Below, piece after piece: positions 21,601 through 62,096 of a stretch of 64,000 nt of DNA. A program made the translations under genes and the position numbers. This DNA comes from Cyanidioschyzon merolae (Eukaryota), in NCBI GenBank assembly GCA_000091205.1, contig AP006497.2. One strand, written 5' to 3'. The notes under the pieces were generated by a model, which saw only the letters and a list, made by a program, of their open reading frames with translations, had not been told where the DNA came from and did not search any database. The stretch's first letter is position 1. Every line of letters starts with the position of its first letter.

Positions 21601-21633
21601 CTTCGGTGTTAGCGTTGGCACTAGCAGTTTATC

Positions 21634-31035: not shown

Positions 31036-31136
31036 CACACCAGGGCACAGTACCTCGTTCGTCCACGTGTGCTTCTGCCTCCGGGACGCCCCACTCCCTG
31101 GGTCATATTGAAGTGCTTTCATCAAAGGAAATAGAA

Positions 31137-40785: not shown

Positions 40786-43700
40786 TTACGGCCGTTTTTT
40801 GACCTTGGAAGGCGCACCCGCTCCAATAAAAAGTGCTGGAGGCAGCCGCTGTTCCTTGTGACAGGTGCGTGCGAAGCACCGCGTACCGCAAAAACGGAGC
40901 GTTCCCCGGTAAACGACTGACCAGGTTGAGGTTTCGGGTCTGGGTAGCTGCTGGGACGTAGCAGCGGGCCCCGGTGCGGCCTGCTGTTCAACTAGATGGG
41001 TGCGTTCATAGAATGAGCAAGTATATACTATGGTGTTCGGAAAGTATAGTTTAGTCGCAGGGGCGAACACGCCTCGCCGATCTGCGCGCCTTGCTGCCCC
41101 GCTGCGTTTGGCAGATGAGCATGGGATGCGACGCTGGTCACTCGGTTCCCGAATTTCGAGTTGTTCCACCAGCATGAGCACCGAGATGCAGACTCGATAT
41201 TCATAGAGTGGCAATCAAGGCTCACGAGCGCCCGGGTAGCTTTCGAATTCGCGGTCGTCGTTTCGGAGTGGATTCTGGGAGACGTTGCAGTTGGAATGCC
41301 TCATGGGAGCGGCATCAAAAAATGATTCGCGACACCTTTGAACAAGGGTTCGTCCAGTAACCGACTTCGCCATCCCGTTTGTACGTATACCGCTCCATGA
41401 TTCGCTTTTGCGTACGTATAGCATGCGCAAACCGCGCATTGTTCAAGTTGCAGGTCTTTTATTTCTAAGAAAACGCAAGGATGCAGCAATGCGCGCTGCT
41501 GCATTCACGAGGCGCGAAGCTCGTCGTCGTCCTTTGGCGACTTGTTCAGAAACGCATGCAGAAACTTCGTTGACCCGATCACGTTAAATACTCAATTCTA
41601 TTCGAAAGAAAAACGCTACTCCTTTCTTTGACCATCGACGCGAATGCAATCGGCGTCAACATGTTCTCGCTCATGGGACATGCTCCCAGAGGTTCGCGTC
41701 TCTTCTGTTTGCGTGGAAGTGGGTCTTGGGGTCGGACCTGATTTGCTGCAGCAATCGCCTGCAGTGGGGAGTGCGTCACTGCTTTGTACGAAGCGGTTTC
41801 GTCCGATCGAAAAGATTTCGATTGTTCTCCAGCCTGGATTCTCCTTCCTGTTCTTGTTTCATCATGGATAACATCGCCGCTCGCGAATTCTCTATCGAAT
41901 GTAAAAGCGTGCACTTGCATGTGAGCGAACAGAACACTCCCTGAGCGGATCGGCATGAAGAGGCCTCTGTTCGTGGTGTACGGCGTCAGGCGCGAAAACG
42001 GAGAAGAGCATCGGGACGACATTGTGTATCCGTCAAGGGCATGGACCGAGCAGTGCAGCAAGCATACGCGTGTGACGAGGCGGCGTTCAGAGGAGGAGAT
42101 GTGGGAGACCTACGGGAACACCTGGCAACGGACAGGTGCCATTGCTGCGACGGACATGCCCTGATCATATGCGAAGGAGACGATACCGGTTGGTGAATCG
42201 TCGATCGATCGCAACTTTCTGCTGTGTATGAACTGGGTAGAAAACAGTGGGAAGCAGCGTCATCGCGACATGAACGATGCCATCAGCATCCTTCGACCTC
42301 GTTCATCGGACCCGAGCTGGCGCGATAGACCTCGGTATGTGAAGCCGGATACCAGAGCGATGAAGTGGAAACATTTGCGGAAGAATCCCGTAAAGGCTGA
42401 CGTTGATCACAGTACGAAGAGACGCAAACTTGCGCGTGCACGCCAGAGTTCGCTACGTGGACTCCCGCCACCTTAGTCCAACACGGATATACTTGTTCAC
42501 GTCGCACAGTCCTATTACCCAACTGTATCTGCTTTCATGGTCGAGACTACCGGTCGCATACGACGCATCAGAGACCGTATCCCGCAGAACTGAAGATAGC
42601 GCTTGTGAGCGCCCGGGAAGTGTTTGCGCGCTCGACATCGCAACGCCACCGCGCGTTGCTCTGCGGTGAATCACCGAGTGTTGCGCATGATTCGATGTAT
42701 TGGGGGCAACATTGCTGACAACGTTCGCGTTAGCCTGTTGGTTTGTTGGGATACCTGCCCTCGACGCAACGAGCGCTTGCCGCAGAGCATTCAGTGTCTG
42801 CAAACCTCGCTCTATGGCACTGCTCTATGAAAAGTCCGCGACCTGGCGTTGGCTCGTGCAGCAGGCGCGACGCTCCACAGCAGGGTTGCTCCGAGTGAGC
42901 GGCGCCTTCATTGCGATAGGTATGGGCACTGGTGTTGCGATTTATGCTTTTAGTGAGTGGTTCTCCGGTGGTGCGGAAGTGCGCGCGGCAAACTACCGGG
43001 CAGCTATGCGTCACGACCCGGAGGCTAAGCGCTACGCCGACCACAGCCGGGACGCGCTGCGAGCACTTTTCGCCCAACGAGCGGACCAGCAGAATGTGGA
43101 GCCGGAGACGAGCTCTGAAAAGAGCTCCGTAGCGCTCCCGAAGATTCCCCGAGTGGCCTGGCACCCCAAGGCCGACCCCAAGCCGGACTCGTGTTCCTAG
43201 ACGACCACGGTCGCTGGTCGCTTCCCCGGGTCGGTTGGGTCCCGGGTGTCGCTCCTCTTCTTGAGTCGTGTTGCACACTCGGGTGCACCTCGCTCGATGC
43301 CCTCATACCACTCCGCCAAAACAGGCAGCCAAGTCGGAGACGCCAACATAGAGGCCTCGACGCTGTCGCCTTGGAGACCAGGGGTGTCTGCTGTTGCGGT
43401 TGGCGCTGAAAGGTTACTCGAGCCCTGGATAGAGCCCTGAGACGCACCTGCTTGCTCGCGAGGTGCCTCTCGGGGTGCTGGCCCCTGCCTCTGAGCTGGC
43501 TGGTCGGAGCGAGTCCGCCGTCGCCAACGAAACCAGCCCCCTGAACCCGTGCGTGCGGCGGGTGCTGTGGACCCTGAACCTGTCGCCTTTAACTCACACA
43601 GTGCCTGTTCACTGCAAAGCATCTCCGCCAATTGCCAAGCTCGCGTTTGAACCAACTGCCTGCGCGCCTCTGCTAGCTGCGACTCGCGGTGCTTAAAGTC

Positions 43701-45128
43701 TGCGATCTGTAACCGCAGGCGCTCTTTATCGTCCTCTAGCTGCGTTTTACGCTCTAAACCCTGCAATGCCACTGCGAGCGCTAAACCAGCACACCCCATA
43801 GCGATCCAGTCCCAACGAGGAGCCATGTTAGTGGCTCAGCAGCGGCCTGCTATCGAAGACACCGACGAAGAACGAAAACGGGGAAGCAGCGCCGACTGCC
43901 AGCATATCTGCACGGCGACCAGAACGGTTCTCAGAGACCGGTTCGATATTGACCGGGCGCGCACACTCATACGCTTCCTCGCCTAATACCTTCAGGGGTT
44001 TATCTAAACATCACTGGTACAGTTGATCATACGACCAGGAGTGTGCGCTCGCCCGAGTCCAGGAACCTGAAAGCGGGACGGGAACAGAACGTCGCCTCGT
44101 GGACAGCGTGGCGCTCTCTGGTGGTGCACTGGACCCAAGCACGCTTGGGTGTTCTTGTGAATAGTTTCAACCGGGGAAGTAGTAACTATTCTGGAATAAG
44201 AATGGAAACCCGTTGGAAAAGCGTCTTGTACACGTTCACGACACCAGTGGGTAGCGAGAGGACCTTCCCGGAACTTCCTCGCAGCTACCTAGCAGGTAGG
44301 TCGTCTGCGGGCACCTGTTTAGAAGAACCAGCGCAGCGAAGCCTGCTGAACGCAAAGTTCGCAAACTTGACGAGTTCTACGCGATGAATTTACAGTGTGT
44401 TTGCAAGGCGGCACGTAAGCGCAACGTTCGAGCACTTGATGGCGAACGGGGGTCGCTTTGCCGCTGCACCGACGATAAGACACCGTTTGAGCTGGTGTCA
44501 ATAACGACGACGGAGAAAAGCGCGTATATTCAAGGACGATTCTGCGAGGCGTGCACGTCGTCATGCATCCAATAGAAACAAGAGTTTATAGAGTGGAAAA
44601 AATGCTCGTTTTCTTGGTCCCTTGGACCCACGAACAGAAGCGCGTCGGTGGCTTTGGTAAACAATGTGCACGACATCGTCGTTCCCTGAACAGAATGCTT
44701 CGAAGCGTGCTTGCGTCATCACACAACGACTCTAGTCACGCCAACGAAGATGTCTGGAATCATCCTGCTCCTGTTTCTATGACGAGTGTTCCATTTCGAT
44801 GCTACGCTGAGCAAACAGACACACAGACGCTTGCACCCAAGCATTCGTCTACTATGGTGCGCGGATCCTAGGGTCTCTGCTGCACCAGCGTAGCAGCTAA
44901 GCGTTTCGTGAATCGAGCCGAAAGCTGCCCGCACCTAGCACACAGGCCAATGCGGAGATGCAGCCAGGCTCCTGGGGACAGCACCACGGGTCCAAGGCAC
45001 GCGACGACACCGCAGCGTGTTCCAGCGACCGAGAAGCTGCAGCAGTAGCGGGCATGGAGGTCAATGTGCTGCCATCCAGAAGCCAAGGTCTTTACACAGA
45101 CAGCCCTGCTGTAGTATCGAGGGCGCAC

Positions 45129-47726
45129 TCAAAATGGAGATTCTGCACCCGATAGGGACGAGACGGCGTACATGCCTTCCAAGTCGGAGGCGCTCCACGC
45201 ATCCATGTTGGCTTCGTCGTCCTCCGCCGAGAGACGCAGATATTCGAGTGCTGCGAAGCGATCCCAGTCCGTTAGGTCGGGGACTGCCCGCTCCTGTCTC
45301 AAGAGTGATGGATCTCGACTTTCGATCGCGATGAACTTGTTCAAGTTGAACAGGATATTGAAGAAATGGCTCTGCATGCGACTGGATCGTAAAGCTGAAC
45401 GCGTGATCACCGGTGGATCAAGATCCTTGCTGATCATGTCCAGCAACTGACAGAGAATATCCTCAAATGCAACTGGTTCGTGCCCCAGACACTCCATTCG
45501 ATGCAGTTGTTCTGAATAGAGCCAATCAACATCGTACAGGGTGATCTTTCCATCGCCGTCCGCATCAATGCAGCGAAACCAATAATCCAAGGCCGTCTCT
45601 GAATTCTTGTCTTCCTCGCTGAGGATAAACCAGATGAAATCCGTATAGCTCATGTAGCCTGGGCGTGCGCAGTCGAGAGGCCTTCCTCGTCCACTAAAGA
45701 TACAGTCAATGATCCGGTAGGTCAGGGCGTGCCCGTTGTAGCGCAGCAGATCCTCGCGGTCGATCATGAGATCATGATCTGTGTCCAATTCCCAGAATCG
45801 ACAGTAAATCACGTAGAAATGCTCGTAGCTGAAACAACTACGCTCCTGGTTGATGTCCTCTTGTTCGTCGACGCTTCGAAAAATGTCCAAGAGACGATGT
45901 CGGCGGATATCCGACAGATACGCCTGCCCATTCGGCCGGTTCAGATAGTAGAATATCCGTTCGATGACTGTCTCAGCGTAGCGATGCTGGAACTCTGGGG
46001 TGGACTGCAGAAACTGTAAGCCGGGATGCGTCGCCAGCAGCGCATCAATGAAGGGTCGAAAGTCGGAACCAACAAGGTATCGGCGCTCATGTGCTTGTCG
46101 GTCGGCTCGATCCCGTTGCCCGTCGAGATTCCGCCGATTCGATGTCCATGAAGCTGCTGCAGACCTGGGCGAGATGCTGCTTCTTGGTGAGGATACGCTG
46201 TGAGCGTCGCTCTCCGTACGCTCCTCGTTCGGAACCGATGCGTGATAGTCACGGGAGCGTTGGAGTGCGTGGAAGAGGCGAGCGTGTCGATCGTAGCCGG
46301 CACAGTCCTCAACATACCATTGCAAGAATATGGACTGATGGATACGCTCACCCGTTGCCCCCGGGATGCTGATCTCCTTTGCGCCCTTCTTGTTCGTACC
46401 TTCTACCTCCGAAGCTACGTTGGACGTTTCGAAGTGCTGTTGGCGTTGGAGCAAGCGCTCGAAAATGACCAGCGAGACAAAGCTCGGCAACCCGACAATG
46501 TCCATAATGAGTTCAACGACCTCGCGCTGGCTCAGTGCTCCGTCTTGGCAATCAAAAGCGGCCTGTATGGCCTGTTGTTCTTCTGCAGCCCGGATGACGT
46601 GTTCGTGCGCGCGCCCATCTGGATAGTAGAAGCGCGGGATCGTCTCCGCCTTTGCGAATGCGCACTCTGATGGTACAAAGAGCGCATTCACCGCTGAACG
46701 CTTGTTCAGACCTCCTGAATGGAGCGCATTTCGCTGGTGTGCTGTCTCCTCACATGCAGGTAATGGTGGCGAGAACGATGCTCCATTCTCAGTCGAAGAG
46801 CCATCGTGGCCTACTCCCGAGTCCATATATGATGCGATCTCATGGCAACGCTCCTCGGTATCGGATTGACCATGTGCCATCGCCGCATCGCTATCCTCAA
46901 CTTCGGACCAGATCCTAAAAACCTCATACTTTCTGATGAAATGTGATACTGGCGACTGTGGGCTCGACGTCAAAGAAGCTTCCTCTGTGGAGCTACTCCG
47001 TGAACGGCCTTGCCTTGCAACGCGTGCTTCGCCACCAGCGGGCGAGCCCGGAGTTTGGCTCAAGATGCGATAGAAGGCGCTGCGCGCCGCTCCGGCCGGG
47101 GAGTTTGGCGTAATGGTATCGGCATTCGTCGGACGCTTTGCGGTTGCCCCGTGCGATGCAGCATTACACGAAGCTGTCGGGCTCGAAAGTCGTTCCTGGC
47201 GGAGCATGGTAGGCTTCGGTGAACCAGCAGTCACAAGATCTTCGTCGGTCACCCTTCCCGTGACGTCCAGTTTCCCCAGGACCTGCTCCAACCAAGCGAG
47301 CGTTTCCGGGAGAAACAACCAACGCATAAAGAGGTACTCTAAGTGCCGTTTCGGCTCTAGCGCAATATCCGTGGCCGATAGCGTCACCAGCAGTTTTGGT
47401 GCGTCCATGGTGCCGGAAATCGCGTGCACACCGGACTCGTCGCCCCCGGTAACAAACACAGCTGTAACCTCTATACCAGACTCTATGGTCTGCTCAGAGG
47501 ACATTATTGAAGCGTTCCTACGTAGATCACTCGAGCTGCTGCAGCTCAGCGGAGTCAGGCCGGGGAGATGTGTGCCAAGCCTCACCCGCTTGCGTCTCAA
47601 GACACGAGGCGAGACTGGAACGCACCTTTCAACTTTACAACCATCGCCAGAAGCCGTTCGAAAGTCGAACGACGTCGGGCGTGTACAGTAGTGGCGGCGA
47701 ACGCGCCCTAGACAAATCGTCTCCAA
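45129..47726 (-). CDS. Protein phosphatase 2A regulatory subunit B-double-prime (PR72/PR130/TON2-type, EF-hand containing)
   Basis: Conserved B-double-prime core: FYYLNRPNGQAYLSDI, FWELDTDHDLMIDREDLLRY, EF-hand DADGDGKITLYDVDWLYSEQ, FEDILCQLLDMISK. The N-terminal about 500 aa are low-complexity and Ser-rich. The first codons overlap the end of Fanzor-like copy A, so the true start is probably downstream. Confidence 0.75.
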   Translation of the reverse strand: METICLGRVRRHYCTRPTSFDFRTASGDGCKVERCVPVSPRVLRRKRVRLGTHLPGLTPLSCSSSSDLRRNASIMSSEQTIESGIEVTAVFVTGGDESGVHAISGTMDAPKLLVTLSATDIALEPKRHLEYLFMRWLFLPETLAWLEQVLGKLDVTGRVTDEDLVTAGSPKPTMLRQERLSSPTASCNAASHGATAKRPTNADTITPNSPAGAARSAFYRILSQTPGSPAGGEARVARQGRSRSSSTEEASLTSSPQSPVSHFIRKYEVFRIWSEVEDSDAAMAHGQSDTEERCHEIASYMDSGVGHDGSSTENGASFSPPLPACEETAHQRNALHSGGLNKRSAVNALFVPSECAFAKAETIPRFYYPDGRAHEHVIRAAEEQQAIQAAFDCQDGALSQREVVELIMDIVGLPSFVSLVIFERLLQRQQHFETSNVASEVEGTNKKGAKEISIPGATGERIHQSIFLQWYVEDCAGYDRHARLFHALQRSRDYHASVPNEERTESDAHSVSSPRSSISPRSAAASWTSNRRNLDGQRDRADRQAHERRYLVGSDFRPFIDALLATHPGLQFLQSTPEFQHRYAETVIERIFYYLNRPNGQAYLSDIRRHRLLDIFRSVDEQEDINQERSCFSYEHFYVIYCRFWELDTDHDLMIDREDLLRYNGHALTYRIIDCIFSGRGRPLDCARPGYMSYTDFIWFILSEEDKNSETALDYWFRCIDADGDGKITLYDVDWLYSEQLHRMECLGHEPVAFEDILCQLLDMISKDLDPPVITRSALRSSRMQSHFFNILFNLNKFIAIESRDPSLLRQERAVPDLTDWDRFAALEYLRLSAEDDEANMDAWSASDLEGMYAVSSLSGAESPF

Positions 47727-50195
47727 TTGCTGTGTAGACGCCTTCCCGTCTTTTTGGAGCGGCCGCCAACTACTGCTTCCAACTTTTTCTCATATAGTTC
47801 GACCTTGAGAGGTTGTCCAACAAAGTTCACTCTTGTCAACGCTGGAGGTCTCGTCTCCAGCGCCGCACATCTCCTTATATTGATGGCGGCGTTAAAGTCT
47901 CGGTTCACAAACTCCATACGTTTCGTGCCATCACTGGTTGTACTTACTGATGCAAGCAATCCTCGAACTTTCGCTCTCCTTTCCATTTGCCCTTCCGGCA
48001 GCGCTCCGTACTTTTTCGTATCCTTAGGGCTCCGCTGGCACTTTTCCATCTCCACCCTCTGGAGTGTACACCCCAGTTCATGGTGTGTATACGATGTTCG
48101 AAACTCATCTACAGGTATTGTTTCAAAACGCCGTGCGCGCTCCCTCTACGTTCTCGTCGTTGGAGCTGGCGTCGTCCTTTTTGGGTCTTCCATCGGCCTG
48201 CTCCGTACGCTACTATGAGCCTCTGACTTTTATCCTCCTTCAAGTCACTCAACTGATTGAGAAAGTTCGCGAACGCACGCTGCATCCCACCGTAGAGATT
48301 CATTCGCAAACGAGCCCACCGGGGCTTGGTATACTCCTCCCACAGCGCATCCCAATGGGCAACACGAACTTCCATGAATTTCCGAAAAGCATCAAGGTCC
48401 GCTCCTCGGCTCGTCACCTCGCTCATAGCTTCCAGGTGATCCTTCATTCCTGAATTCCATGTAACGATTTTCTTCCTCGCATTCACTATACCGGATTCTC
48501 GATAGTATCTCGCTCTCGAGAACCTCAACAGACGCATGTCTTTCTGACGAAAGTTGCCGTCAGCACCATCTTCCGCACGCTTGGGAGCAGCGATGGTGAT
48601 GATATTCGTGTTTCCGGGGTCCGCGCCAAGGACAAAGTCGTTATCCTGCACTTTCTGCATCGCAGGATCCGCCTCCTACTTTTCTTCATGCTTTGCCGCG
48701 TCAGCGACAAAGTCGTTATCCTGTACCTCCAGCGTCTCAGGATCCGCCTCCTTCCCATCTTCATCCTTCGTCACGTCAACGTTAAAGTCGTTATCCTGCA
48801 CTTTCTGCATCGTAGGACCCGCCTTCTTCTCATCTTCATGCTTCGTCACGTCAACGACAAGGTCGTTATGCTCCACCTCCTGCGTCGCAGGACCCGCCTC
48901 CTTCTTTGCTTCATCCTTCGTCACGGGCGCAGCCGAGGGCGGAACTGGCCGATCTTTCCTCAATGCCGATAGTGTACACAGATGGCTACTCCATCGGTTT
49001 CGATCAACCCAGTGAGTACCTTTTGTTTGCTGACTTTGAGAAGTTTGAAATTGAAGATATTCTTCCGGTACGCCTCCTGGTTTTCACCGGAGAACTCCTC
49101 CCTGCGAACATTGAACTCCAGACTGATCTCCTTCATAATGCCGTGAAGGATTCTGGAGTGGATGGACACAAAATCTGACCTTATGTTGCACATTGGAACC
49201 ACGTTGAAGCGCTTCCCCATTAGGAACGCCTTCCGTCTCTCCCGCTCTTCATTTCTTTCCTCACTCAGCTTCATCTCCGCTTTGCGTTCGAGCTCTCGGT
49301 CCAGAAACACGAAATATCGCAGGATGAGGCGATAATATCTTTCCTTATCTTTTTTCAACGCTGATATCTTTTCTGCTGGATTCGCCAGCCCCAAGACTGC
49401 ACAGTGCTCTTGTATAGCCGTACGGATTACAGAATCCTCATTCGTGCTCTCGTTTGACGCCTTCTTGTCAACGAATTCGATCTCATCTTCATGCTAGCGA
49501 TCTTTCGTGATGGCATCGATAATCGCCCATATTCCATTGCGAGATAGGCCCGGGTAGCGTGCAAACACGGCGCGTATCATGAAACGTTCGAGGTTCATAG
49601 TCAAATGCTTCTTCAGGTTCGTGAGCTACTTCATCGCCCCATAGTCGTAAATATTCGAGTCACCCTTGTATCGAGTACCATTGAATCTGTAAAAGGGATG
49701 TTTTTCGTGGAGGGTATGCACTAGCACATTTTCCTTCCGCGCTTTCTCTTTACGAAGCATCAGGTGTTGAATAAACGTCTTATCGATGGACTCGTCCGGA
49801 ATCTCGACCGTTTCGATCTGCGTCACGTCGCGATACATCTCTCTCGCCAAATGCATCAGTCCTGACGAAGCCTTGACAAGACTCTTGGAGTACGAGTCGA
49901 CACGGTTTTCGATTGCGTCTCGCAACTTTTCCCTGTACGGATCCTTGATATGTCCAAGAAGAATGGTTGTCGCCACCTTCTCGACGTACAGCCGTCTTTC
50001 TTGCCGCCTTCGACGTAGGGCCTCTCCCTTTAGGTCCTTCTTCGCTTCCTTGTCTTCTGGACTCGGCACAGTTTTCGTTTTTTTCTGGTAGTCGGCGACA
50101 CTGAGCCTCCAGGATCGTCGGCTTGCTGTTTCATAGCTTTTTTGTTTCTTTGAAAAACAACGCTCTTTGAAGGCTTCTGTTACATACAGCGACAA
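47708..50195 (-). pseudogene. TnpB/Fanzor-like RuvC nuclease pseudogene (about 650 codons over 4 frame-shifted segments)
   Basis: Homologous segments are in-frame and continuous in copy C (for example TLHETDGATKYHKSLKNH) but interrupted by TAG stops here (YGAMK*, KDR*). Confidence 0.6.
48617..48900. repeat. Coding minisatellite (about 69-nt unit, about 4 copies) inside copy A; single copy in copy B
   Basis: Repeated peptide module K[DH]EDEK[KE]AGP..Q.VQDNDF.VDVT (ORF 48676..48963). The corresponding stretch at 55880-55940 in copy B has one unit. Confidence 0.75.
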
Positions 50196-51149
50196 AACGC
50201 TTGACTAGACTTGTTTGAGGTTTGAACCACAAATGAATTAGAAAACTACACTTTGCTACGACCTGAACGGATATCCAATGTTTTACAGCTGAACAACACG
50301 TTACTGATGCCCACGACAGGGACCTTTACCACAATGAACGGAGGGGCGGAGGCAGTAGCAGCAGAAAATATTGACGATAATTCTGAGTAGTTATCCGCTG
50401 CTCCCGAAACAACGCTGCAGCTTCGGGCGCAAAATCTGGGTCCATCCTCGAGCTCGGGCTCAGTTTTACCTCCTTCTTCGGTTTCTACCTCAACTCTGGA
50501 AACAATCTCGGCGGATATTTTGGAAGACGGCTGGCGGTATGTTCGCGTTCGAAGCTGGAACGAACGACTTGCCCGCCTATGTGTTTGGGGAGCGGATACA
50601 AAGCCGCTGAAAGGTTGGTTCGTAGAGTATCCCCAGTGGTTGAGGGGAGCTTCATGTGTCCGGCAAGATAAAGGTCGCATTCGAGTCGACCTTGACTAAT
50701 GTACATCTGATTCTACGCTAGTGCGGCGCCAAGCACTCAATGAACGACTGGAATGCGGGAGGCGCTGGTGGCATGTACGCTCACACACCCCGTGGAGGGT
50801 GCATCTAAATTGACGACGTATCTCTGGAGTACCGCAGCGCTATTCCTATTCCGTTACGCGCTACAAATCGGTAGGTATTGCATCATGGAATATTTGTGGT
50901 GTAGCCTCGAAACTAGAATAAGAGATATCGAATTACTAGTAGAGTAAAGAGGATCAGATACAACTGAAGGACTCTACAAAAGGAAAAGCGATCCAACGAG
51001 ATACGGAGAAGGAGACACAGGAACCTCATGATCCACCTAGATGCAAAATAACCAGAGAAAGCAGCTCAGGAAAGAGCCCGAAGAAGAAGAAGACCAACAA
51101 GAAAAGACAGAAGAATAGAGAGAAGAACTCCCAAGCGAGCCCATCATGA

Positions 51150-53378
51150 GTGATCCCCCGAAAGAGCACCCCAGCAGGAACTCAAGAAAGCCGTCGCCAA
51201 ACCGAGTCACCTACTCACAGCGCTGAAGATCCGAAAAGCCGTGCGTACAAATCTTTAGACCAATTGGCACGCGAGTTTGTAGATGGGAATCAGAAGACTG
51301 CCAGAGAACTGGGACGGCTGGCACCAGAACGCAACAGTTGGAAACCGCAGTACCTGAAACGACGTATCAAAACTCGGATTGATGAATGCCACCGACTCAA
51401 TAAGATCCTCAACCGCACCGCCATACGCGCCAACGCCGGAGACAAGGAAGCGAAGGCAGCGCTACCGGCGCTACAGGCGCAACATGAGGAAGCTATCAAA
51501 AGAAAGAAGAAACTTTCCAGAGAAGACAAACGAGAGGATCGAAACCGCAAAATCGCCTCTCTGATGGAATCTACGCTAGAGAGCACCAACGAAGATGAGA
51601 CCTGGCGCTATATTCGATCGAGACTCGACCCACCGAAAAGTGCTTGGGGCTCACACCAACTGTTAAAAAGAAGAGCTGAGGACGGAGAGTGCCTCAGTGA
51701 ATGAGGCCTGGATAGACCACGGGAGAGAGCTGCATGAAGACGCAACTGGGAACTGCCAAGACCGAATCTATTGGCATCAGTATGCTGCAGAACTACCGCG
51801 CCTCAACCCGGTACCGGAATGGAACGACCCAATCTTCTGGCCTGAATCTGTTCGGACCCTGCTATGCTCAAGCAACCGCAAAACACCTGGCATCGACGGT
51901 ATCGCGACGGAGTGGATGAAACTGGCGACCCCAAAAGACGGGACAACAGGGACACCATCGATACCAGATGAACCTGACACAATCTTAGGCAAACGCCCTC
52001 TGGAGCTCATCCAACGCATGTTTGAAGAAGCATACATCCCTGATGTATGTAGGAGTGTTGAGGTCGTATCGATCCTCAAAAAGGACTCCCACATACACAG
52101 ACATGAACAACTACCGGACTATTCGCCTCATCCCGTCAATCATGAAGCTACTTTGCGCCATGCTCACGAACCGGATCCAGAGGGGCCTCGAGGAGCGCAA
52201 GTTCTTCGCTTCAGAACAGGCTGGATTCCGGAGTCGCGAGGAGTGCATGAGCCATGTCCTGACCCTCATCGGAGTGGCGCAACGTCGCTCCATTAGCGAC
52301 CAACAACCAGCTTACGTATGCTTCATCGACTTTCAAAAGGCCTTTGACACGGTCCCGCACGAGGCTCCATTTCTCAAGATGGAACGCGCCGGAGTCTCCG
52401 AAAAGTGCTTGGCGTTCTTCAGTGCGCTCTATGCAGACTCGTGGATGCGCATCCGACTGGGCGACAGCTCAAGAACCCCTTCCAGAAGAATCCGCCGTGG
52501 ACTGCGACAGGGCGACCGCGCATCCCCGCTCCTTTTCAACATCTTCATCAACGATCTGCTGAACAACGGCAGACAATTCGTGGCTGAGGCGCCGTGGATA
52601 GACTGTGGAGATGTCCGGTGAGGAGCCCTCAGATAGGAACCGCCTCGCAGGCCTTCTATTCGCGGACGATGTCGTGCTGTTGGCACCCACCCCGGAAACG
52701 CTTGCGGCTAGCATGGAACAAGTCAGCGCCTGGACCGATCGCTGGGAGATGAGCATAGGAGCATCGAAGTGCGGCGTCATGGTCATCCATGGAGACTCGC
52801 AGAGCATTCGCAATCGCTCGTGGCGGTTGCAGAATCAGGAAATTCCGGTCGTGGAAAAATATCGCTACCTGGGGGTCGGTCTCATGCTGACGCTCGACGA
52901 AAAGGCACACATCGACGAGATGATCGCCAAGATGCATAGAGGTACAGCGATCGCACGCCCATTCCTATCCGATCCCTCTATCTGCATAGCAATCCGTACG
53001 AGGGCACTAAGGATGTGTATCATCCAGCCTGCGACCTGGGGTGCTGAATTGTGCGGCATAAAGCACAAAAATGCCTCGCGTCTGCAGACAGCCGCCAACA
53101 GGGCAATGCGACTCGTTCGTGTTGGATGCTCAGTGCAGAGCAGAGCAACCAACCCGTTGACACTCGGACCTGAACTCCAAACACCATCGACAGAGGCGAT
53201 AGCAGCAGGCTTCCAGGCACGTGTGTGGGCCAAAGGGCCCATCATGCGCACCTGGTTCAGTCGGAGTTTCATGCAGACCCCAACGCACTCCAAGAAATCT
53301 TGGATGGAATCGACGCAGATTTGGTTGGAGCGCCACTTAGGCGAAAACACGCTCCCCAATCATTCCCCAGGAATATAG
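51150..53378 (+). mobile_element. Non-LTR (LINE-like) retrotransposon fragment: reverse transcriptase, 5'-truncated and frameshifted
   Basis: RT motifs across frames: KTPGIDGI (domain 1), YRTIRLIPSIMKLL, FIDFQKAFDTVPH, GLRQGDRASPLLFNIFIND, LLFADDVVLLA (the YxDD box in its FADD variant), and the thumb region ...YRYLGV. No endonuclease domain upstream; at least two frameshifts. Confidence 0.75.
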
Positions 53379-54477
53379 AAGGCTCCCGCCGCCTCTAGCG
53401 AACGGTCCGAACAACCATATGGGAATTTAGACAAGGTACCAGTCGCGCAAGTAACGCCGGCTTGACCCTATCCGGAACTACACCCTAGCATACACATGCA
53501 AGTACTGGTAGGGGGTGCTGGAATTCCCGGGACTTGCTCGAGGTACCCAGTGGCTCGCCAAAATCCGCGTTGGTGGCTTCCGGCTGGCAGCACCGGCTCT
53601 AAGCCGGAAAGGAGCACTGGAATCGCACTGGGAATCACACTGTCCCTGCTGTGGAGACGAGAGCCCCCGAGAAGCTGACGCATTTACTGTTACAGTGCCC
53701 GCGCTAGAATCAGGAGCGCAGCGAGCTCCTTGAAGGACAGCAGCAGCTGGGCATCAGCGTGATAGTGGAAGGCCGGACACTCATTCTGAGTGTAGCACTG
53801 GCAACTGATGGTCCGCTAACCGAGCCGCAGCGCTCGTTAGTGGCGAACAAACTCACATTCTACCTTCTAAGCGGCAGGTCCAACGAATCGGATGAGCACA
53901 CGGGTTTAGTGCTCTTTGTGCCTGCCTACTGGCGGGTGTCAAGCACAAACCCGCATTGCCGACCGACAACACATTCAATGCATGATCACGAAGGAGAGAG
54001 GCGGCTCCCAGGATTCATCCTAACAGCCAAGTTTCTCCAGCGTGTCGTGCAGCGAAGGTAAGACTGCATTTGCAGACTCGCTGAGCATATATCGACGAAG
54101 AGACCCGATTCTACGTCGGGTGAACCACGCCTCGAGCCGACGCCCTCTGTGGTATAGCAACGCCGTTCTGTCTCTATGAGCTATCTGCTCCAGCATTTAA
54201 GGTGCAAAGGCGAATACGGAGCGGCAGCTACTAGGCACACACGATAGGACGTATGAAACGACCAGAATATCTGAGATGAAGCATAGGTAATCTAACTTGG
54301 AGGCAGGTGCTTCATCATGGACGCTTTCCCGAAAGCCATTATCCATTCCAAATTCTGGGATCCATGGTCAATGGAAACGTCTTGTCAATAACAAAAAAAC
54401 AAATTGCGCTCGGTGGGCGCACCTCGGAGATCGGGAAGTCAACTGACACGACGCGCATGCCGCCGTAGAAGGGTAAC

Positions 54478-56890
54478 GCGATTGGGATCAGTAACGTGTT
54501 GTTCAGCTGTAAAACATTGGATATCCGTTCAGGTCGTAGCAAAGTGTAGTTTTCTAATTCATTTGTGGTTCAAACCTCAAACAAGTCTAGTCAAGCGTTT
54601 TGTCGCTGTATGTAACAGAAGCCTTCAAAGAGCGTTGTTTTTCAAAGAAACAAAAAAGCTATGAAACAGCAAGCCGACGATCCTGGAGGCTCAGTGTCGC
54701 CGACTACCAGAAAAAAACGAAAACTGTGCCGGGTCCAGAAGACAAGGAATCGAAGAAGGACCTAAAGGGAGAGGCCCTACGTCGAAGGCGGCAAGAAAGA
54801 CGGCTGTACGACGAGAAGGTGGCGACAACCATTCTTCTTGGACATATCAAGGATCCGTACAGGGAAAAGTTGCGAGACGCAATCGAAAACCGTGTCGACT
54901 CGTACTCCAAGAGTCTTGTCAAGGCTTCGTCAGGACTGATGCATTTGGCGAGAGAGATGTATCGCGACGTGACGCAGATCGAAACGGTCGAGATTCCGGA
55001 CGAGTCCATCGATAAGACGTTTATTCAACACCTGATGCTTCGTAAAGAGAAAGCGCGGAAGGAAAATGTGCTAGTGCATACCCTCCACGAAAAACATCCC
55101 TTTTACAGATTCAATGGTACTCGATACAAGGGTGACTCGAATATTTACGACTATGGGGCGATGAAGTAGCTCACGAACCTGAAGAACCATTTGACTATGA
55201 ACCTCGAACGTTTCATGATACGCGCCGTGTTTGCACGCTACCCGGGCCTATCTCGCAATGGAATATGGGCGATTATCGATGCCATCACGAAAGATCGCTA
55301 GCATGAAGATGAGATCGAATTCGTTGACAAGAAGGCGTCAAACGAGAGCACGAATGAGGATTCTGTAATCCGTACGGCTATACAAGAGCACTGTGCAGTC
55401 TTGGGGCTGGCGAATCCAGCAGAAAAGATATCAGCGTTGGAAAAAGATAAGGAAAGATATTATCGCCTCATCCTGCGATATTTCGTGTTTCTGGACCGAG
55501 AGCTCGAACGGAAAGCGGAGATGAAGCTGAGTGAGGAAAGAAATGAAGAGCGGGAGAGACGGAAGGCGTTCCCAATGGGGAAGCGCTTCAACGTGGCTCC
55601 AATGTGCAACATAAGGTCAGATTTTGTGTCCATCCACTCCAGAATCCTTCACGGCATTATGAAGGAGATCAGTCTGGAGTTCAATGTTCGCAGGGAGGAG
55701 TTCTCCGGTGAAAACCAGGAGGCGTACCGGAAGAATATCTTCAATTTCAAACTTCTCAAAGTCAGCAAACAAAAGGTATTCACTGGGTTGATCGAAATCG
55801 ATGGAGTAGCCATCTGTGTACACTATCGGCATTGAGGAAAGATCGGCCAGTTCCGCCCTCGGCTGCGCCCGTGACGAAGGATGAAGCAAAGAAGGAGGCG
55901 GGTCCTGCGACGCAGGAGGTGGAGCATAACGACCTTGTCGTTGACGCGGACCCCGGAAACACGAATATCATCACCATCGCTGCTCCCAAGCGTGCGGAAG
56001 ATGGTGCTGACGGCAACTTTCGTCAGAAAGACATGTGTCTGTTGAGGTTCTCGAGAGCGAGGTACTGCCGAGAATCCGGTATAGTAAATGCGAGGAAGAA
56101 AATCGTTACATGGAATTCAGGAATGAAGGATCACCTGGAAGCTATGAGCGAGGTGACGAGCCGAGGAGCGGACCTTGATGCTTTTCGGAAATTCATGGAA
56201 GTTCGTGTTGCCCATTGGGATGCGCTGTGGGAGGAGTATACCAAGCCCCGGTGGGCTCGTTTGCGAATGAATCTCTACGGTGGGATGCAGCGTGCGTTCG
56301 CGAACTTTCTCAATCAGTTGAGTGACTTGAAGGAGGATAAAAGTCAGAGGCTCATAGTAGCGTACGGAGCAGGCCGATGGAAGACCCAAAAAGGACGACG
56401 CCAGCTCCAACGACGAGAACGTAGAGGGAGCGCGCACGGCGTTTTGAAACAATACCTGTAGATGAGTTTCGAACATCGTATACACACCATGAACTGGGGT
56501 GTACACTCCAGAGGGTGGAGATGGAAAAGTGCCAGCGGAGCCCTGAGGATACGAAAAAGTACGGAGCGCTGCCGGAAGGGCAAATGGAAAGGAGAGCGAA
56601 AGTTCGAGGATTGCTTGCATCAGTAAGTACAACCAGTGATGGCACGAAACGTATGGAGTTTGTGAACCGAGACTTTAACGCCGCCATCAATATAAGGAGA
56701 TGTGCGGTGCTGGAGACGAGACCTCCAGCGTTGACAAGAGTGAACTTTGTTGGACAACCTCTCAAAGTCGAACTATATGAGAAAAAGTTGGAAGCAGTAG
56801 TTGGCGGCCGCTCCAAAAAGACGGGAAGGCGTCTACACAGCAGTTGGAGACGATTTGTCTAGGGCGCGTTCGCCGCCACCGCTGAAAACT
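54478..56890 (+). mobile_element. Fanzor/TnpB-like element copy B (right arm of inverted duplication), pseudogenised
   Basis: ORF fragments 54600..55169, 55401..55835, 55832..56461 ([19 protein letters not shown] at 55937-55966; LIVAYGAGRW) and 56515..56862 (NRDFNAAINI at 56665-56694; ...GRRLHSSWRRFV stop). Confidence 0.65.
54600..56862 (+). pseudogene. TnpB/Fanzor-like RuvC nuclease pseudogene
   Basis: Same as the copy A pseudogene; identical premature stops. Confidence 0.6.
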
Positions 56891-57163
56891 GCGGGAAGCA
56901 ACGTCTTTCTTTTGAAAGAGGTTTGTTGTTGCTGGTGGCGGTTGTGCATCTTTATATCCTGGATCGTGTCAGCGATCTCACACGGTACAAAAGTTGAAGG
57001 GGTGCAACACACGTACAGCTTCTCTGTCTGGGCACGTGCAACGCTCGAATCCTGGCGGCGCTCTCGAGACTGATAGAGAAAGCCCGCTTGTGAGGTATGC
57101 TCGGCGCTTGTTTGATTCGCGCTCTTACCCTGCGCAGGAAGCCGTGAACAAAATACTGCTGGC

Positions 57164-59260
57164 ATGGAGGCAGAAGGGGTTGCTGTTGCGACTGCCGCAG
57201 AGCAGGCAGCACTAGTATTCTTCTGCGGTCCGCTGAACGGCAGCATCTTTGTAGCGGAGTGCGCAGAAGTAATAGATGCCGCTATCGTTGAGAGCTCCGA
57301 GGCGTGGCGCTGGACGGTGCGACCAGTGTGGCTGCGCTCTCCCACGAGCGACAACGCATTGAGCCCCGCACTGGCGAGAGCAACCACTGACGGACGCGAA
57401 AGAAAGCGACAGCGGACGAAACCTGCTGACGTATCCGCCAATGTGTCCGAACGAGAGCACCTCCGAGCAGCCAAGGTTGCCGCTGCCCGCTCTCTGCGTG
57501 GCAATGGGGTACGCTGTATCGCGGCTCAGCGCTGCGGGCGGGCGACAAGTCGGGGCGATGGCGAGACCTGCTGGATGCTTGCCGCTGCCGGAGATGATAA
57601 GATACTGCGCGTTTTTCGAGGGAAACACATACAACCCGCGCAAGCGACAGATGCAGCGATGCTCTGGGAGACTGTCGTCGAAAAGTAAGCTGGTTCGGTA
57701 CGAGTACCTCGCTAGCATGCCGAGATCTAAGGATGAAGCGTATAACTGCATTGGACTAGAGTTTCTGAGTCTAATTCTGTGCTGAAAGCGTTGCTTTCCC
57801 TTGGCTGTCTGAAGCTTTCCGGAACGCTGGCCGGGTGCCTCGCACGCTTGACGATACGAGCGTCGCGGATGGAGCCTTTGCTGGACAGATAAACTAACCG
57901 CGGTAATTTTGAGCACAGAGCGAACCCGAAACGGATGACAGCTGTACAGCTGGGTTTCGACGGCCGTGTGGCGCTCACAGCCGACAAATTCGGTGACGTC
58001 TACGCGCTCCAGATCGGGGAGGAAGCGTTGCTGCCAGAGCCGGCTTGGCAGTATTTGTTGCGTCAGCCGGTATATGTTGCGGGGGACGCTTCTGTAGAGC
58101 CAGTCATGGGGCATTTGTCAATCATTACATCGTTGGCAATCGATCCTGGAGGCCGTCTCATAGCTAGTGCTGACATCGAGGGCCAAATTCGCATTTCGGC
58201 ATTTCCGGAGGTGTACAGAGTAGAGCAAATCTACTCTAGTTGCGGCGGTGATCCATCATGGTGCACATCCAGCGACTTTATCACGAGACTCTCCTGGAAG
58301 CATGGTAGTCAAACGCCAACGCTCATAGGCGCTGGGACCGACGTCTGGTTCGTGGCAAAACAAGTGAAGCCGGTGCCCGCGGCACGCGACACTTGCGATG
58401 GTGAATCCTGTTGGCGTATCTGGGGTGGGCGTCTCGGCTCCTTGCGCGGAACTGGAGCGGCCTATGAGGGATCAACTTCAGACGAGAACGCATCAATGGT
58501 GGCCCGAGCGCCTTCTGAGGGTGCAGCTGGCCGCGCACTGGGTCGAGCATCGGGGCTGGAATCTTGCTCGACGCACGGTTTCACGTGGATTTGTCTGGAT
58601 ATCGATGCTCGCCTGACGCTAGCGCTCTGGGGCAACGCTCAGCATCAGACGTGCTTCAGTATTATTTCGTTGATGAACGCGGAATCCGAGAGCGCACTGC
58701 ATCGTTTGAATGAAAGACTGGGCGATGCTCGAGCTCGCTATCGAACGCGTATACCAACCGGATGCTGCTCACTGCCGCTCAGCACGTGCTTGCCCAAGGG
58801 CCGTGAACACCAGCTCCGGTCGTTATCGACGCCCGTAGAACTGTGCTCGATGATCTTCGTTCCGACAGCGCCTGGTCCACTTGATGCCGCGGTCTGCTCG
58901 ATGCATGAGACAGGCGCCCGGTGGACACCTGAGGTGACCCGAACCTCCACAGACGTCTCTGAACCCGAAGCTGTTCGTTTCTTCTTTGTTCTTCCCTTTG
59001 TGGAAAGCGATGACCCAGCAGCGGAGGATGCGCTGTTGCCTCTGGCGGCGACGATGCAGTGGACGCTCAACCAGTCCGTCGCAACTTGCATCCGAGAGTC
59101 CAGCGGGGCGTTCAGTACATCTGAGCGAGCAAACACACCTTACAATGCCTTACATCACTCGGGCTGGAGCTGGATATTCGATCAGGCATGCAACGCCGTG
59201 ACCGGAGGCGACGGAAGCCCAGCGCCCGTGCCGACCCCCACTACGGAAACCTCGAGGTAG
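57164..59260 (+). CDS. WDR4: tRNA (guanine-N7)-methyltransferase non-catalytic WD-repeat subunit (WDR4/Trm82 homolog); two exons inferred (57164..57684 and 57919..59260)
   Basis: Exon 1 ends ...AAAGDDKILRVFRGK... (compare human ALTDDSKRLILFRTK). Exon 2 has TADKFGDVYALQI (WDR4 hallmark DKSGDVYSF) and HLSIITSLAIDPGGRLIASADIEGQIRISAFPEVY (compare [30 protein letters not shown]). Both ORFs are in the same frame, separated by a TAA. GTAAGC at 57685 and CACAG ending at 57918 give a 234-nt in-phase intron. Confidence 0.65.
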
Positions 59261-60797: not shown

Positions 60798-62096
60798 TCA
60801 CTTGTGAACTTGGGTGCCTGTGGGGCCACCTAAACAGCATAAATCCAGAAAGCATGGCGTTTGGAGTGGTTCCGCAGACACCAAGGCAACAGCCGTCTTT
60901 TTTTCGTTCGCGAACGACGTGCTGTTTCGTGCAACGAACTGCGCAGAGCTCTCCCGCAGTCCTGCGAGCGGCTAGTGCGCTCTCCTGGAACGAAGGCGGA
61001 GCCCAGAGGCCGCTTTGGTTCGTTCCCCCGGCCACAGGAGGACAATCTAAACATTGTGCGAGTGGTAGTCTGTTGATCGCTGCCTCTGACGGGAAACCGG
61101 CGCACACGAACTTGAACCGTCAACGTTCGGGGCCTGCATATCGACCGTCGCGGGACACCAGGCGCGGTGGACACCACCGTGCAGGCGGACGCCCCCAAGC
61201 AAGGCGTTCCGAACAGCAGTGTTTCGTGCTCGTCGCCAACCCGTGCAGACGACCAACGCAGCGCCCGATTATTGAAGTTCGGGCAAGCAAGGCTGTCTTT
61301 GGGAAACGAGCAACGGTGCGGACCCGAGCGCGAAGACGCCTTCGCGCTGCTGCACGGCAAGTGCTGGTGATCTGGGGACGCAGCGACTTTTCCTACGTTA
61401 TTCACGGCTTACCGGAATGTCTCTTTGTGTCGTGGAAAGACCTGCTACAGGAAATGATGGAAGCTTTGCAACGGTCTGGTTGTGCGCATGAGAAAGCTCG
61501 TGCTCCGCCACGTCTACCGCAGCACCCACACGACGCCTCCTCTTCATCAAATGGGCAGGCGTCTGCCGCGGAATCCACCAAAGACGGTTCTCCAGCCGCG
61601 CAGTTGACTCAAACAGATGAAAAACCCACTACAGACGCGTTTCGACGACAGTAGCGCCAATGTCACTGCAGTGAAGCGGCGCTCGAACCATACCAGCATG
61701 ACGACTCAGACAAGAGCTGGAAGTACTGTATCGCATGAGCCGATGTTGGCGACCATTCTTCCATTCCATTGAGGAGTAGAATCGATGATGCGAGGAGGTC
61801 GCCATGCGCGCTAGTGGATGATAGCGAATAGAGCGAAACGGCATTCAGTGCTGTGGCCGACGACAGTGCCCCAGATGCATGCCCCTAGCCCAATGCCCCT
61901 ATTCTGATCACGATACCTGCAGCGATGCCTTGGTGTAGCGTTTTTCGGATGCAATACAGGCAGGCTGCATCGAATGGATGCGGAATATGGCGGGAAACGG
62001 GACACGTGTGCCTTGAATGAACCCCGCGATCATGAGGAACAAGCGGACTCGCCCGTGTGTGTATCAACCGCGTCTCCTTGCGGTGTTCACATTCCG

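Follow-up and report, generated by a model that had tools for sequence, protein, structure and literature searches.

Arm-to-arm gene conversion maintains palindromes such as P1-P8 of the human Y chromosome, and also the inverted repeats of plastids. Cyanidioschyzon merolae harbors the Fanzor1-family element CMe-1A, with ~150 copies of ~3 kb that are ~80 % identical to the consensus, have neither TIRs nor TSDs and correspond in their 5' 635 bp to TE-N2_CMe (Bao & Jurka 2013, PMC3627910). The novel interspersed repetitive element of 3.2 kb with 253 copies and a WSV486-like ORF, described by Nozaki et al. 2007 (PMC1955436), is probably the same element. In a window of 64,000 nt of contig AP006497.2, which contains the ORF of BAM81511.1 of C. 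merolae 10D, a palindromic locus lies between the PP2A-B'' and WD40 genes, which are transcribed divergently and stand 9.7 kb apart. We read this locus, with a probability of roughly 85 %, as two separate ancient dead CMe-1A copies in head-to-head orientation, whose interiors are ~99 % identical through recurrent gene conversion.

Repeat search, blastn and MAFFT delimited the arms to 47691-50311, with a Fanzor1 pseudogene on the minus strand (~47708-50195), and to 54484-56879, with a Fanzor1 pseudogene on the plus strand (54600-56862); both are putative gene-conversion tracts. The spacer comprises 4172 nt (50312-54483). Twenty substitutions over ~2396 aligned nt separate the arms (99.2 % identity by MAFFT), together with one repeat-number indel of 225 nt. 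A chance origin cannot explain an inverted repeat of such length and identity. Near-identical inverted arms of a Fanzor-like pseudogene had been proposed in the earlier note, and the self-alignment it had called for recovered them, ~7-11 nt off its coordinates. Each of the two arms corresponds to the core of a Fanzor1-family CMe-1A element. The conceptual protein of the arm matched intact homologs (e.g., P0001 at 66 % identity), Profile A2 matched the solved Fanzor1 nucleases PpFz (9cf0, E = 1.6e-19), SpuFz (8gkh, 1.3e-13) and GtFz (9cer, 1.2e-4), and for an AF2 model (pLDDT 85.7) the best Foldseek matches were seven Fanzor structures (E ~1e-17, TM 0.53-0.70). The residues of the RuvC D-E-D triad, D422, E593 and D662, are invariant across the family. 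The likeness to the solved nucleases lies in fold, profile and triad, but sequence identity is just 12-15 %, and the window copies are pseudogenes. We counted 290 family stretches; some intact Fanzor ORFs are present in the family (cf. PMC3627910). In common with the published CMe-1A are the organism, units of ~3.2 kb with a single Fanzor1 ORF, a TE-N2-type 5' region, the lack of TIRs and TSDs and copies that are ~80 % alike. Unlike the published CMe-1A, these two copies are dead, arranged head-to-head and, in one case, carry a LINE in the 5' region, and the pair is 99 % identical instead of ~80 %, set against CMe-1A by its published description rather than the Repbase consensus. A third copy in the window (18508-21603, plus strand), complete, long-form and likewise a pseudogene, served as internal yardstick for ordinary paralog divergence and is ~81 % identical to the arms. 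Another head-to-head pair of the family, L007, has arms of only 82 % identity. A solo TE-N2 is located at 27120-27739 of the window.

The arms are 113/115 identical directly before 'GCCGCCAC' and 21/43 directly after it. Beyond this point lie two 3' tails outside the 99 % tract: variant A in the left element (47651-47690, minus strand), 88 % identical to the paralogs L068/L024, and variant B in the right element (56880-56923, plus strand), 74 % identical to L034/L021/L013. Both are in register with 22 paralogs in the family alignment, and their identity to each other is 49 %. Folding revealed in each a terminal hairpin of 8-12 bp, different in sequence, namely CGTCGTTCGA-CTT-TCGAACGGC at 47651-47675 on the left and AACGTCTTTC-TTTT-GAAAGAGGTT at 56900-56923 on the right. 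The 3' non-coding tail of CMe-1A is conserved and its terminal hairpin stops exactly at the unique flank, a position as expected for a Fanzor omega-RNA scaffold followed by the guide, which makes the tail a candidate only. An Rfam search gave no match, and RNAalifold support was limited to a small internal hairpin.

At the inner side, the first 82 nt of the right element core (54402-54483, plus strand) are in register with the family, lie outside the inverted repeat and have no counterpart in the left copy; 43 loci extend across 54484, with their starts near 54403. The adjoining 54104-54401 (minus strand) represent the TE-N2-like 5'-terminal 300 nt of the left element, the true 5' end of a long-form CMe-1A. 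Their reverse complement matches positions 5146-5445 of L055 and the third copy at 18508, and L013 continues from this terminus into unique DNA. The right copy may have arrived within a larger unit instead of by simple solo insertion, because the junction of reverse-complement TE-N2 terminus and core start recurs in at least seven paralogs. The segment 50312-54103 (plus strand) is the remnant of a non-LTR (LINE-like) retroelement that sits antisense to the left Fanzor gene within the left element's 5' region; its junctions recur in the paralogs L013, L005, L010, L015 and L001. The RT region (~51150-53700) contains at least three frameshifts. RVT_1 matches were obtained in the spacer, and the best matches among solved structures were R2 (E = 6e-18) and L1 ORF2p (LINE-1; E = 2e-13), in line with the truncated non-LTR RT that had been suspected in a ~4.2-kb spacer. 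No endonuclease domain was found in 50312-54103.

The right arm carries TAG stops at 55167 (Y in intact homologs), 55299 (K) and 56422 (Y), and frameshifts at ~55833 and ~56392. The same three TAG codons and two frameshifts are present in the left arm (frames -3/-2/-1 in tblastn against P0001), and the 20 differences between the arms all lie elsewhere. The left arm has one additional stop inside its extra tandem repeats, three further copies of an in-frame 75-nt (25-aa) repeat found by TRF at 48626-48850 (minus strand) in this arm only. That both arms share premature stops had been recognized before, and it had been concluded that a segmental inverted duplication, rather than two transpositions, followed pseudogenisation. 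A single duplication of an already dead Fanzor gene, with 0.8 % divergence since, agrees with the arm identity and the common lesions, and the R-odd and WL-odd counts (14 vs 6) do not differ significantly (p = 0.12). The element ends contradict it: the arms run in register into different family-typical 3' tails, so that the 99 % tract stops within the complete 3' ends of two elements, the 82 nt of element 5' sequence occur in the right copy only, and two-sided homology cannot later swap a terminal 44-nt tail adjoining unique DNA.

Orthologous arms were available as contigs from short-read metagenome/SRA assemblies of several strains. The passage from the PP2A flank through the left arm into the spacer is reproduced in L030 and L031, that from the right-arm tail to the WD40 flank in L084-L095. 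The contigs L087-L095 comprise the WD40 flank and the right tail, kept as variant B, and reach as far as 1.2 kb into the right arm. Flanks diverge from 10D by 0.56-0.67 %. Left and right orthologs each retain their own tail and flank, and by these contigs both arms are old. No single contig from another strain was found to span both arms. In a repeat of 99 % identity, a contig can join parts of both arms into a chimaera; therefore we relied only on sites where the two orthologous arms have one state and the two 10D arms another. Both 10D arms have the 1-nt deletion of frameshift 2, which neither L031 (left ortholog) nor L091 (right ortholog) has. The change from TAC to TAG at 55169 (stop 55167) is likewise found in both 10D arms and is missing from L031 and L030. 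At nine polarised sites the two 10D arms share the derived state and L031 is ancestral; at sites 56397 and 56566 the right orthologs are ancestral as well. Lineage-specific sites number 6 in the 10D left arm vs 21 in L031 (p = 0.006). The lesions have thus spread between pre-existing arms, because one frameshift common to the 10D arms is missing from the orthologous arms on both sides, and one common TAG is missing from the left ortholog. Strains in which neither arm has this frameshift possess a right ortholog with the same tail and flank. A single duplication is very improbable and largely refuted, and the conclusion drawn from the shared stops is not supported.

The family offers many copies (290 stretches here; 253 in Nozaki 2007, PMC1955436), and intact Fanzor ORFs could act in trans (PMC3627910), so that one defective master might recently have been inserted twice, independently and head-to-head, without any conversion. 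This is very unlikely: no other copy is closer than ~85 % to the arms, and the tails differ by 51 % with bodies differing by 0.8 %. In 10D, both arms have the strain-specific frameshift, which neither orthologous arm has, and both have the strain-specific TAG, which the left ortholog does not have. Independent insertion cannot give this cross-strain pattern because the arms predate these mutations. Five clustered arm differences at 56036-56086 are arm-specific across strains, therefore homogenisation has been patchy and incomplete. The copy numbers of the 75-nt repeat are the same in the orthologous arms as in 10D.

Long near-identical inverted repeats are classic assembly traps, and no independent contig was found over 51534-54483. 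An artefact of the 10D reference is nevertheless extremely unlikely, as three of the four junctions are reproduced by independent assemblies from at least eight samples, the inner junction type occurs in at least seven paralogs, the arms differ at 20 sites and by the 225-nt indel, with arm-specific features recurring in orthologs, and clone-by-clone finishing brought the 10D genome to 100 % completeness (PMC1955436).

The divergent housekeeping genes at the outer ends were confirmed, with corrections. The PP2A regulatory subunit (45132-47504, minus strand; EF-hand_13) is an exact match to the annotated protein BAM81520.1 of 791 aa, whose ATG lies at 47504; the previously given start at 47726 was an artefact of ORF read-through. 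On the other side, the WD40-repeat gene region (57164-59260, plus strand) consists of the ORFs 57164-57688 and 57935-59260; a gene at 57164 holds, its naming as WDR4 is weakly supported (Trm82, E = 0.005). Each dead Fanzor gene faces the neighboring housekeeping gene, the left element ending 146 nt upstream of the PP2A ATG and the right element, at 56923, 240 nt short of the start codon at 57164. This arrangement, and the reported transcription of the family (PMC1955436), would suit a selected role, with selection keeping the arms identical, either as a source of functional hairpin RNA/siRNA or, e.g., as a promoter/insulator module serving PP2A and WD40. Hairpin-RNA/siRNA loci of plants, fungi and animals share the long inverted arms and short spacer, but their defining pathway is absent, since C. 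merolae and all Cyanidiophyceae have neither Dicer nor Argonaute (PMC11376382, PMC9812998). The siRNA source suggested in the earlier note is for this reason implausible. Moreover, the arms gather disabling mutations and differ in repeat number, and arms and spacer diverge by 1.2-2.4 % between strains, faster than the flanks (~0.6 %), hence no sign of constraint. A selected role is highly improbable.

Gene conversion between two old copies is in accordance with the behavior of Y palindromes and plastid inverted repeats: inverted arms around a unique spacer, an identity far above the expectation for their age, and derived mutations shared within a genome and absent from the relatives' orthologous arms. 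Unlike these, the locus has tiny 2.4-kb arms made of two transposon relics instead of duplicated genes and no evident selected cargo, and the 56036-56086 cluster and the repeat number are still arm-specific. As in composite transposons of the Tn5/Tn10 type, bounded by inverted IS copies, two inverted copies bracket a centre, with element 3' ends at both outer ends; in contrast to these, the element is asymmetric and presents one and the same type of end on both outer sides, and the inner junctions are shared by paralogs, the whole unit not. No target-site duplication around 47651-56923 was found on reading the sequence.

The left copy (47651-54401, minus strand) is a long-form element whose TE-N2-type 5' region was earlier invaded by the antisense non-LTR retroelement, and the right copy (54402-56923, plus strand) a core-only element adjoining the left copy's 5' terminus; their order of arrival we infer. 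C. merolae performs homologous recombination with high efficiency (PMC11376382). Conversion over 2.4 kb between copies of perhaps ~80-85 % identity would have been rare at first because mismatch repair suppresses it. As molecular route we infer double-strand-break or gap repair without crossover, in which one arm would be repaired by homologous recombination with the other arm as template. Recurrent intrachromosomal conversion of this kind has probably homogenised the ~2.4-kb core interiors and carried disabling mutations across between the arms; the 3' tails and the innermost 5' segment have remained outside the tract and kept their separate identities, at a locus that presumably has no selected function.

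Two near-identical arms in inverted orientation were located at 47691-50311 (gene on the minus strand) and 54484-56879 (gene on the plus strand), 4172 nt apart. Repeat search, blastn and a global MAFFT alignment were concordant on the extent of this inverted repeat, and its coordinates in the earlier note were right to about 10 nt. Between the arms there are 20 substitutions in approximately 2396 aligned positions (99.2 % identity) and a single 225-nt indel, which TRF assigned to three additional copies of a 75-nt tandem repeat (25 codons, in frame) in the left arm. The whole pair covers 9273 nt and lies 146 nt from the ATG of the PP2A gene and 240 nt from the next ATG on the right. Target-site duplications were sought around each element and around the 9.27-kb unit, and none was found. 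The left neighbour is the annotated PP2A regulatory subunit BAM81520.1 with its start at 47504; the open reading frame up to 47726, earlier taken as the gene start, is a read-through into the repeat. On the right follow two open reading frames (57164-57688 and 57935-59260) with one WD40 repeat and a weak similarity to Trm82/WDR4. The open reading frame 21634-23034 is identical to the branched-chain aminotransferase of C. merolae 10D (BAM81511.1/XP_005537547.1), a strain whose genome was finished by a clone-by-clone approach, with a reported completeness of 100 % (PMC1955436). Rfam and tRNA scans of the 64-kb window gave no matches.

The arm copies are relics of a Fanzor1 family, not working members. 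Translation of the right arm revealed a single long reading frame that is split over three frames and interrupted by three in-frame TAG codons (55167, 55299 and 56422). As each arm carries two frameshifts and the three TAG stops, the gene is not intact; tblastn with the intact homolog P0001 displayed the three-frame split on both arms and one extra stop within the additional repeats of the left arm. The conceptual protein retrieved intact homologs, P0001 (752 aa, 66 % identical) and P0031 (702 aa, 39 % identical). Introns or a variant genetic code were rejected as explanations of the in-frame TAG codons, since the intact homologs are collinear over both frame changes, with Y, K and Y in place of the stops, and since each frameshift is an indel of 1 nt. 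The premature stops are without exception TAG, with TAC/TAT or AAG as the corresponding codons of the homologs, and the natural stop is at 56860; no RIP-like or CpG-biased mutation pattern was seen overall. Pfam searches with the single open reading frames of the arms and with the intact homologs yielded nothing, and the NCBIfam single-sequence search gave only a weak tail match to guided_TnpB (E = 0.016). A first, shallow profile (A1) retrieved no Fanzor from the PDB, but the wider 38-member profile A2 matched the solved Fanzor1 proteins of Parasitella (9cf0, E = 1.6e-19), Spizellomyces (8gkh, 1.3e-13) and Guillardia (9cer, 1.2e-4). In a Foldseek search with the AlphaFold model of P0031 (pLDDT 85.7, pTM 0.83), the best seven matches were all Fanzor structures (E ~1e-17, TM 0.53-0.70), followed by Cas12 proteins. 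The split-RuvC triad D422, E593 and D662 was invariant in the 38 family members, and the window copy still has the motifs DADPGNT, VDEFRTS and NRDFNAAINI. The assignment as Fanzor and as pseudogene, made earlier from the sequence alone, was correct. The family comprises 1934 cluster representatives at E <= 1e-3 and 290 close stretches in JGI metagenomes. Directly upstream of the RuvC-I motif, this Fanzor1 clade has a 25-aa acidic/lysine-rich tandem repeat (...KHEEKKEA.PATQEVEDNDLVVD...), observed at 48624-48925 and 55870-55946 and in the homologs P0001, P0002, P0005 and P0008. Its copy number ranges from 1 to at least 5 among the copies, and the difference between four copies in the left arm and one in the right arm is stable over strains.

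The host C. merolae, the unit size with sharp ends, the Fanzor1 gene and the TE-N2-like 5' part match the published description of the element family CMe-1A. Bao and Jurka (2013) described about 150 copies of approximately 3 kb, some of them intact, with about 80 % identity to the consensus, neither TIRs nor TSDs, and TE-N2_CMe as the 5' 635 bp (PMC3627910). A search for TIRs or TSDs found none. Almost certainly, the same family had been reported by Nozaki et al. (2007) as a '253-copy novel interspersed repetitive element' of 3.2 kb with a WSV486-like truncated ORF; that element is transcribed and accounts for about 5 % of the genome (PMC1955436). The family is unusually abundant in the window: a third complete long-form copy, a pseudogene with about 10 stops, is situated at 18508-21603 on the plus strand, and three degenerate fragments, all representing the 3' end of the element, are at 2047-2412 (minus), 6204-6579 (plus) and 31110-31619 (plus). 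A solo TE-N2-like element of about 620 nt (27120-27739, minus strand) has 65 % identity to positions 13-625 of the long-form 5' region, consistent with the independent TE-N2_CMe family of Bao and Jurka.

The palindrome consists of two such elements. The left element (47651-54401, minus strand) comprises a tail of variant A (47651-47690), the Fanzor pseudogene, a remnant of a non-LTR retroelement on the plus strand (50312-54103, the junction to the pseudogene at 50311/50312) and the first 300 nt of TE-N2 (54104-54401), the genuine 5' terminus of long-form elements. The right element (54402-56923, plus strand) contains only the core, followed by a tail of variant B (56880-56923). The earlier call of a LINE in the spacer was correct: an RVT_1 domain was detected (E = 1.8e-19), and the best solved relatives are R2 and LINE-1 ORF2p. 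This LINE has at least three frameshifts and many stops; an endonuclease domain was not detected upstream of 51150, no poly(A) was present at its end at 54103, and the compared sequences included no independent LINE copies that define its ends. The junction of LINE and core (50306-50312) recurs in the paralogous loci L005/L004, L010, L013, L015 and L006, that of LINE and TE-N2 in L001, L007, L013, L025 and L036/37. These recurrent junctions place the LINE inside the 5' region of CMe-1A before the spread of the sub-family, and it is not a free insertion between the two arms.

The tract of high identity starts and ends within two separate elements. Towards the tails, the copies agree in 113/115 of the final alignment columns ahead of 'GCCGCCAC' and in 21/43 of those directly after. 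The left tail is 88 % identical to the loci L068/L024 and the right tail 74 % to L034/L021/L013, both in register with the family. At its inner end, the right copy has a further 82 nt of family sequence, missing from the left copy because of a deletion of about 262 nt relative to L005. A terminal tail of 44 nt that adjoins unique DNA could not have been swapped later by two-sided homology, thus the right copy came with its own tail. A simple segmental inverted duplication was considered and rejected, as the sequences beyond the tract are not unrelated: the tails are homologous in register and represent different variants. Furthermore, both arms are present in strains that lack lesions common to the 10D arms. 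The earlier note had concluded from the shared stop codons that the duplication took place after pseudogenisation; with different tails and with both arms in strains that lack some of the shared lesions, this logic fails. Whether the similarity of each arm to its sub-family relatives changes across the tract boundary was also tested, with no informative signal.

Orthologous arms from other strains revealed that mutations have moved between the arms. The 80-kb contig L031 is collinear with the window at 41711-51533 and contig L030 at 48333-51501; together they cover the PP2A flank, the left tail, the left arm and 1.2 kb of the spacer. For the right side, L084-L095 span the WD40 flank and the B-type tail and extend by up to 1.2 kb into the right arm. 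The divergence of the flanks from 10D is 0.56-0.67 %. The orthologous arms stem from short-read metagenome assemblies of several strains, in which the two arms may be mixed in a contig that runs into a 99 % repeat; therefore, the case rests on characters in which both orthologous arms agree against both 10D arms. Such a character is the second frameshift, a 1-nt deletion (window 56392/48175) that is present in both 10D arms and absent from L031 on the left and L091 on the right; both contigs keep one frame of Fanzor homology across this point. The stop codon TAG at 55167 is also in both 10D arms, while L031 and L030 have TAC (Tyr), the family state. Polarisation of the variable sites against 51 paralogs identified nine derived states common to both 10D arms and ancestral in L031, among them TAC to TAG; at the sites 56397 and 56566 the orthologs of the right arm are ancestral too. 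At frameshift 2, 56397 and 56566, derived states occur in both arms of 10D and are absent from both orthologous arms, as concerted evolution leaves them. The left arm of 10D has 6 unique sites versus 21 in L031 (p = 0.006), an asymmetry expected if approximately two thirds of the mutations of the 10D lineage had either been passed on to the other arm or been received from it. The homogenisation has gaps: over strains, arm-specific states persist in a cluster of five differences at 56036-56086, at the site 56766 and in the repeat number. For scale, the third copy in the window is about 81 % identical to the arms, and the arms of another head-to-head pair, in locus L007, are only 82 % identical to each other. 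One right-arm ortholog, L093, presents the left-arm states at the 56036-56086 cluster and has 16 private substitutions within 155 nt (window 56025-56179); an ectopic conversion with another paralog as donor could have produced this block, or the metagenome contig could be a chimaera.

The transfer of mutations is read directly from the strain comparison; from it we infer by which molecular route, in which direction and how many times conversion took place. The best-supported explanation is that gene conversion has occurred recurrently within the chromosome, between two inverted elements that were already in place. Most likely, it would proceed without crossover, by repair of a break or gap in one arm from the other, at a distance of 4 kb. 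In the haploid C. merolae, homologous recombination is very efficient (PMC11376382), which fits the conversion account. The earlier expectation that the inverted repeat is recombinogenic finds support in this gene conversion, with lesions moved between the arms. Only one orientation of the spacer was seen, from the left side, in the contigs L031 and L030, and a search for independent contigs over 51534-54483 found none.

Hairpin-derived siRNAs from the palindrome, also proposed earlier, are implausible in a host without Dicer and Argonaute, the loss of which dates to the ancestor of the Cyanidiophyceae (PMC11376382, PMC9812998). The between-strain divergence is 1.2-1.3 % in the arms, 2.4 % in the spacer and 0.6 % in the flanks; arms and spacer thus diverge faster than their surroundings, which argues against selective constraint. 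Considered separately, the LINE part of the spacer (50312-51533 versus L031/L030) is 2.4 % diverged, the arm 1.2 % and the unique flank 0.67 %; either the repeats evolve two to four times faster here than the surroundings, or they swap sequence with paralogs. A 114-nt tandem repeat at 62090-62541 has copies that are 97-99 % identical, and alignments of metagenome contigs are offset by 114 nt in this stretch, which suggests a copy number variation between strains.

An all-versus-all comparison of 80 loci defined the CMe-1A units as discrete elements of about 3.2 kb, with a coverage that drops to zero at either end. The 3' end is conserved: the stop codon is followed by about 60 nt ending '...GCCGCCACTACTGTACACCGCTGGCGTCGTTCGACTTTCGAACGGCGTT', then by unique flank. 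Tails folded one by one formed in nearly all copies an 8-12-bp hairpin from the terminal ~25 nt, in two sequence versions, variant A (CGTCGTTCGA-CTT-TCGAACGGCG) and variant B (AACGTTTTTC-TTTT-GAAAGACGTT). The pairing is kept in both versions at the 3' ends of about 25 paralogs, e.g., at 47651-47675, 56900-56923 and 21560-21603 and in L024 at 8455-8480. RNAalifold on 25 tails yielded only a small internal hairpin of 5 pairs; the two tail variants pair in different registers. Judged by its position, the terminal hairpin may mark the point where the scaffold of a Fanzor omega-RNA would stop and the guide would start; Rfam gave no match. Motifs resembling G[ATG]TGGTG are frequent in the first nucleotides of the unique flank at the 3' ends of the elements, and the flanks of the two arms have 11 of 14 nt in common (CTGGCGATGGTTGT versus CTGGTGGCGGTTGT); the elements may prefer such targets, or the likeness may belong to a terminal extension that has escaped recognition. 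On the 5' side, the units are built from modules. A search ahead of the core start, which corresponds to window 54402/3, found no shared target motif; instead, at least four different sequences precede this start: the canonical 3' end of TE-N2, a class with the palindrome GGACACGTGTCC, a LINE-containing class and the 5' terminus of TE-N2 in reverse. The palindrome, perfect in its sequence, lies within an alternative 5' end of about 60-90 nt at eight or more loci (L020 at ~6600-6686, and upstream of the core start in L003, L032, L058, L062, L068, L072 and L073). A CMe-1 element without TE-N2 could originally have had it as its left-end hairpin.

The two elements of the palindrome are joined by the reverse complement of the TE-N2 5' terminus and the core start, and the same junction was found in at least seven paralogs. 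In these, the retained upstream length differs, with 27 nt, about 180 nt, about 270 nt, or more than 1 to 2.7 kb into the LINE. The orthologous loci L007 and L001 are 98.6 % identical over 10 kb and split exactly at the TE-N2 5' terminus, where L007 (1-2934) has an inverted CMe-1 core and L001 (8401) continues into unique DNA that holds a 2OG-oxygenase gene; either a second palindrome is polymorphic for presence and absence here, or the difference stems from an assembly join. The formation of head-to-head pairs may therefore be a recurrent event. It is rather improbable that the layout is non-accidental, either because new cores insert site-specifically where resident elements end or because read-through transcripts of the LINE mobilise the cores by 3' transduction with 5' truncation. 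If true, this would be a first mechanistic handle on the movement of Fanzor1 elements without TIRs and TSDs, and palindromes would be a regular by-product of that mobilisation mechanism.

That gene conversion homogenises small palindromes is textbook biology, and the repeat family has been known since 2007 and 2013. The locus is no discovery in kind; it is a new instance of two known things, relics of CMe-1A and a palindrome maintained by conversion. For annotation it is a caution that nonsense mutations common to repeats are no proof of a duplication after pseudogenisation. The locus also defines the ends of CMe-1A with two 3'-hairpin variants and modular 5' regions, an anatomy needed for the reconstruction of an active C. 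merolae Fanzor and its guide RNA. In an organism used as a model mainly for its efficient homologous recombination, it presents a clean, datable natural case of intrachromosomal gene conversion, in which a frameshift and a stop codon are seen moving between the arms after the divergence of strains.
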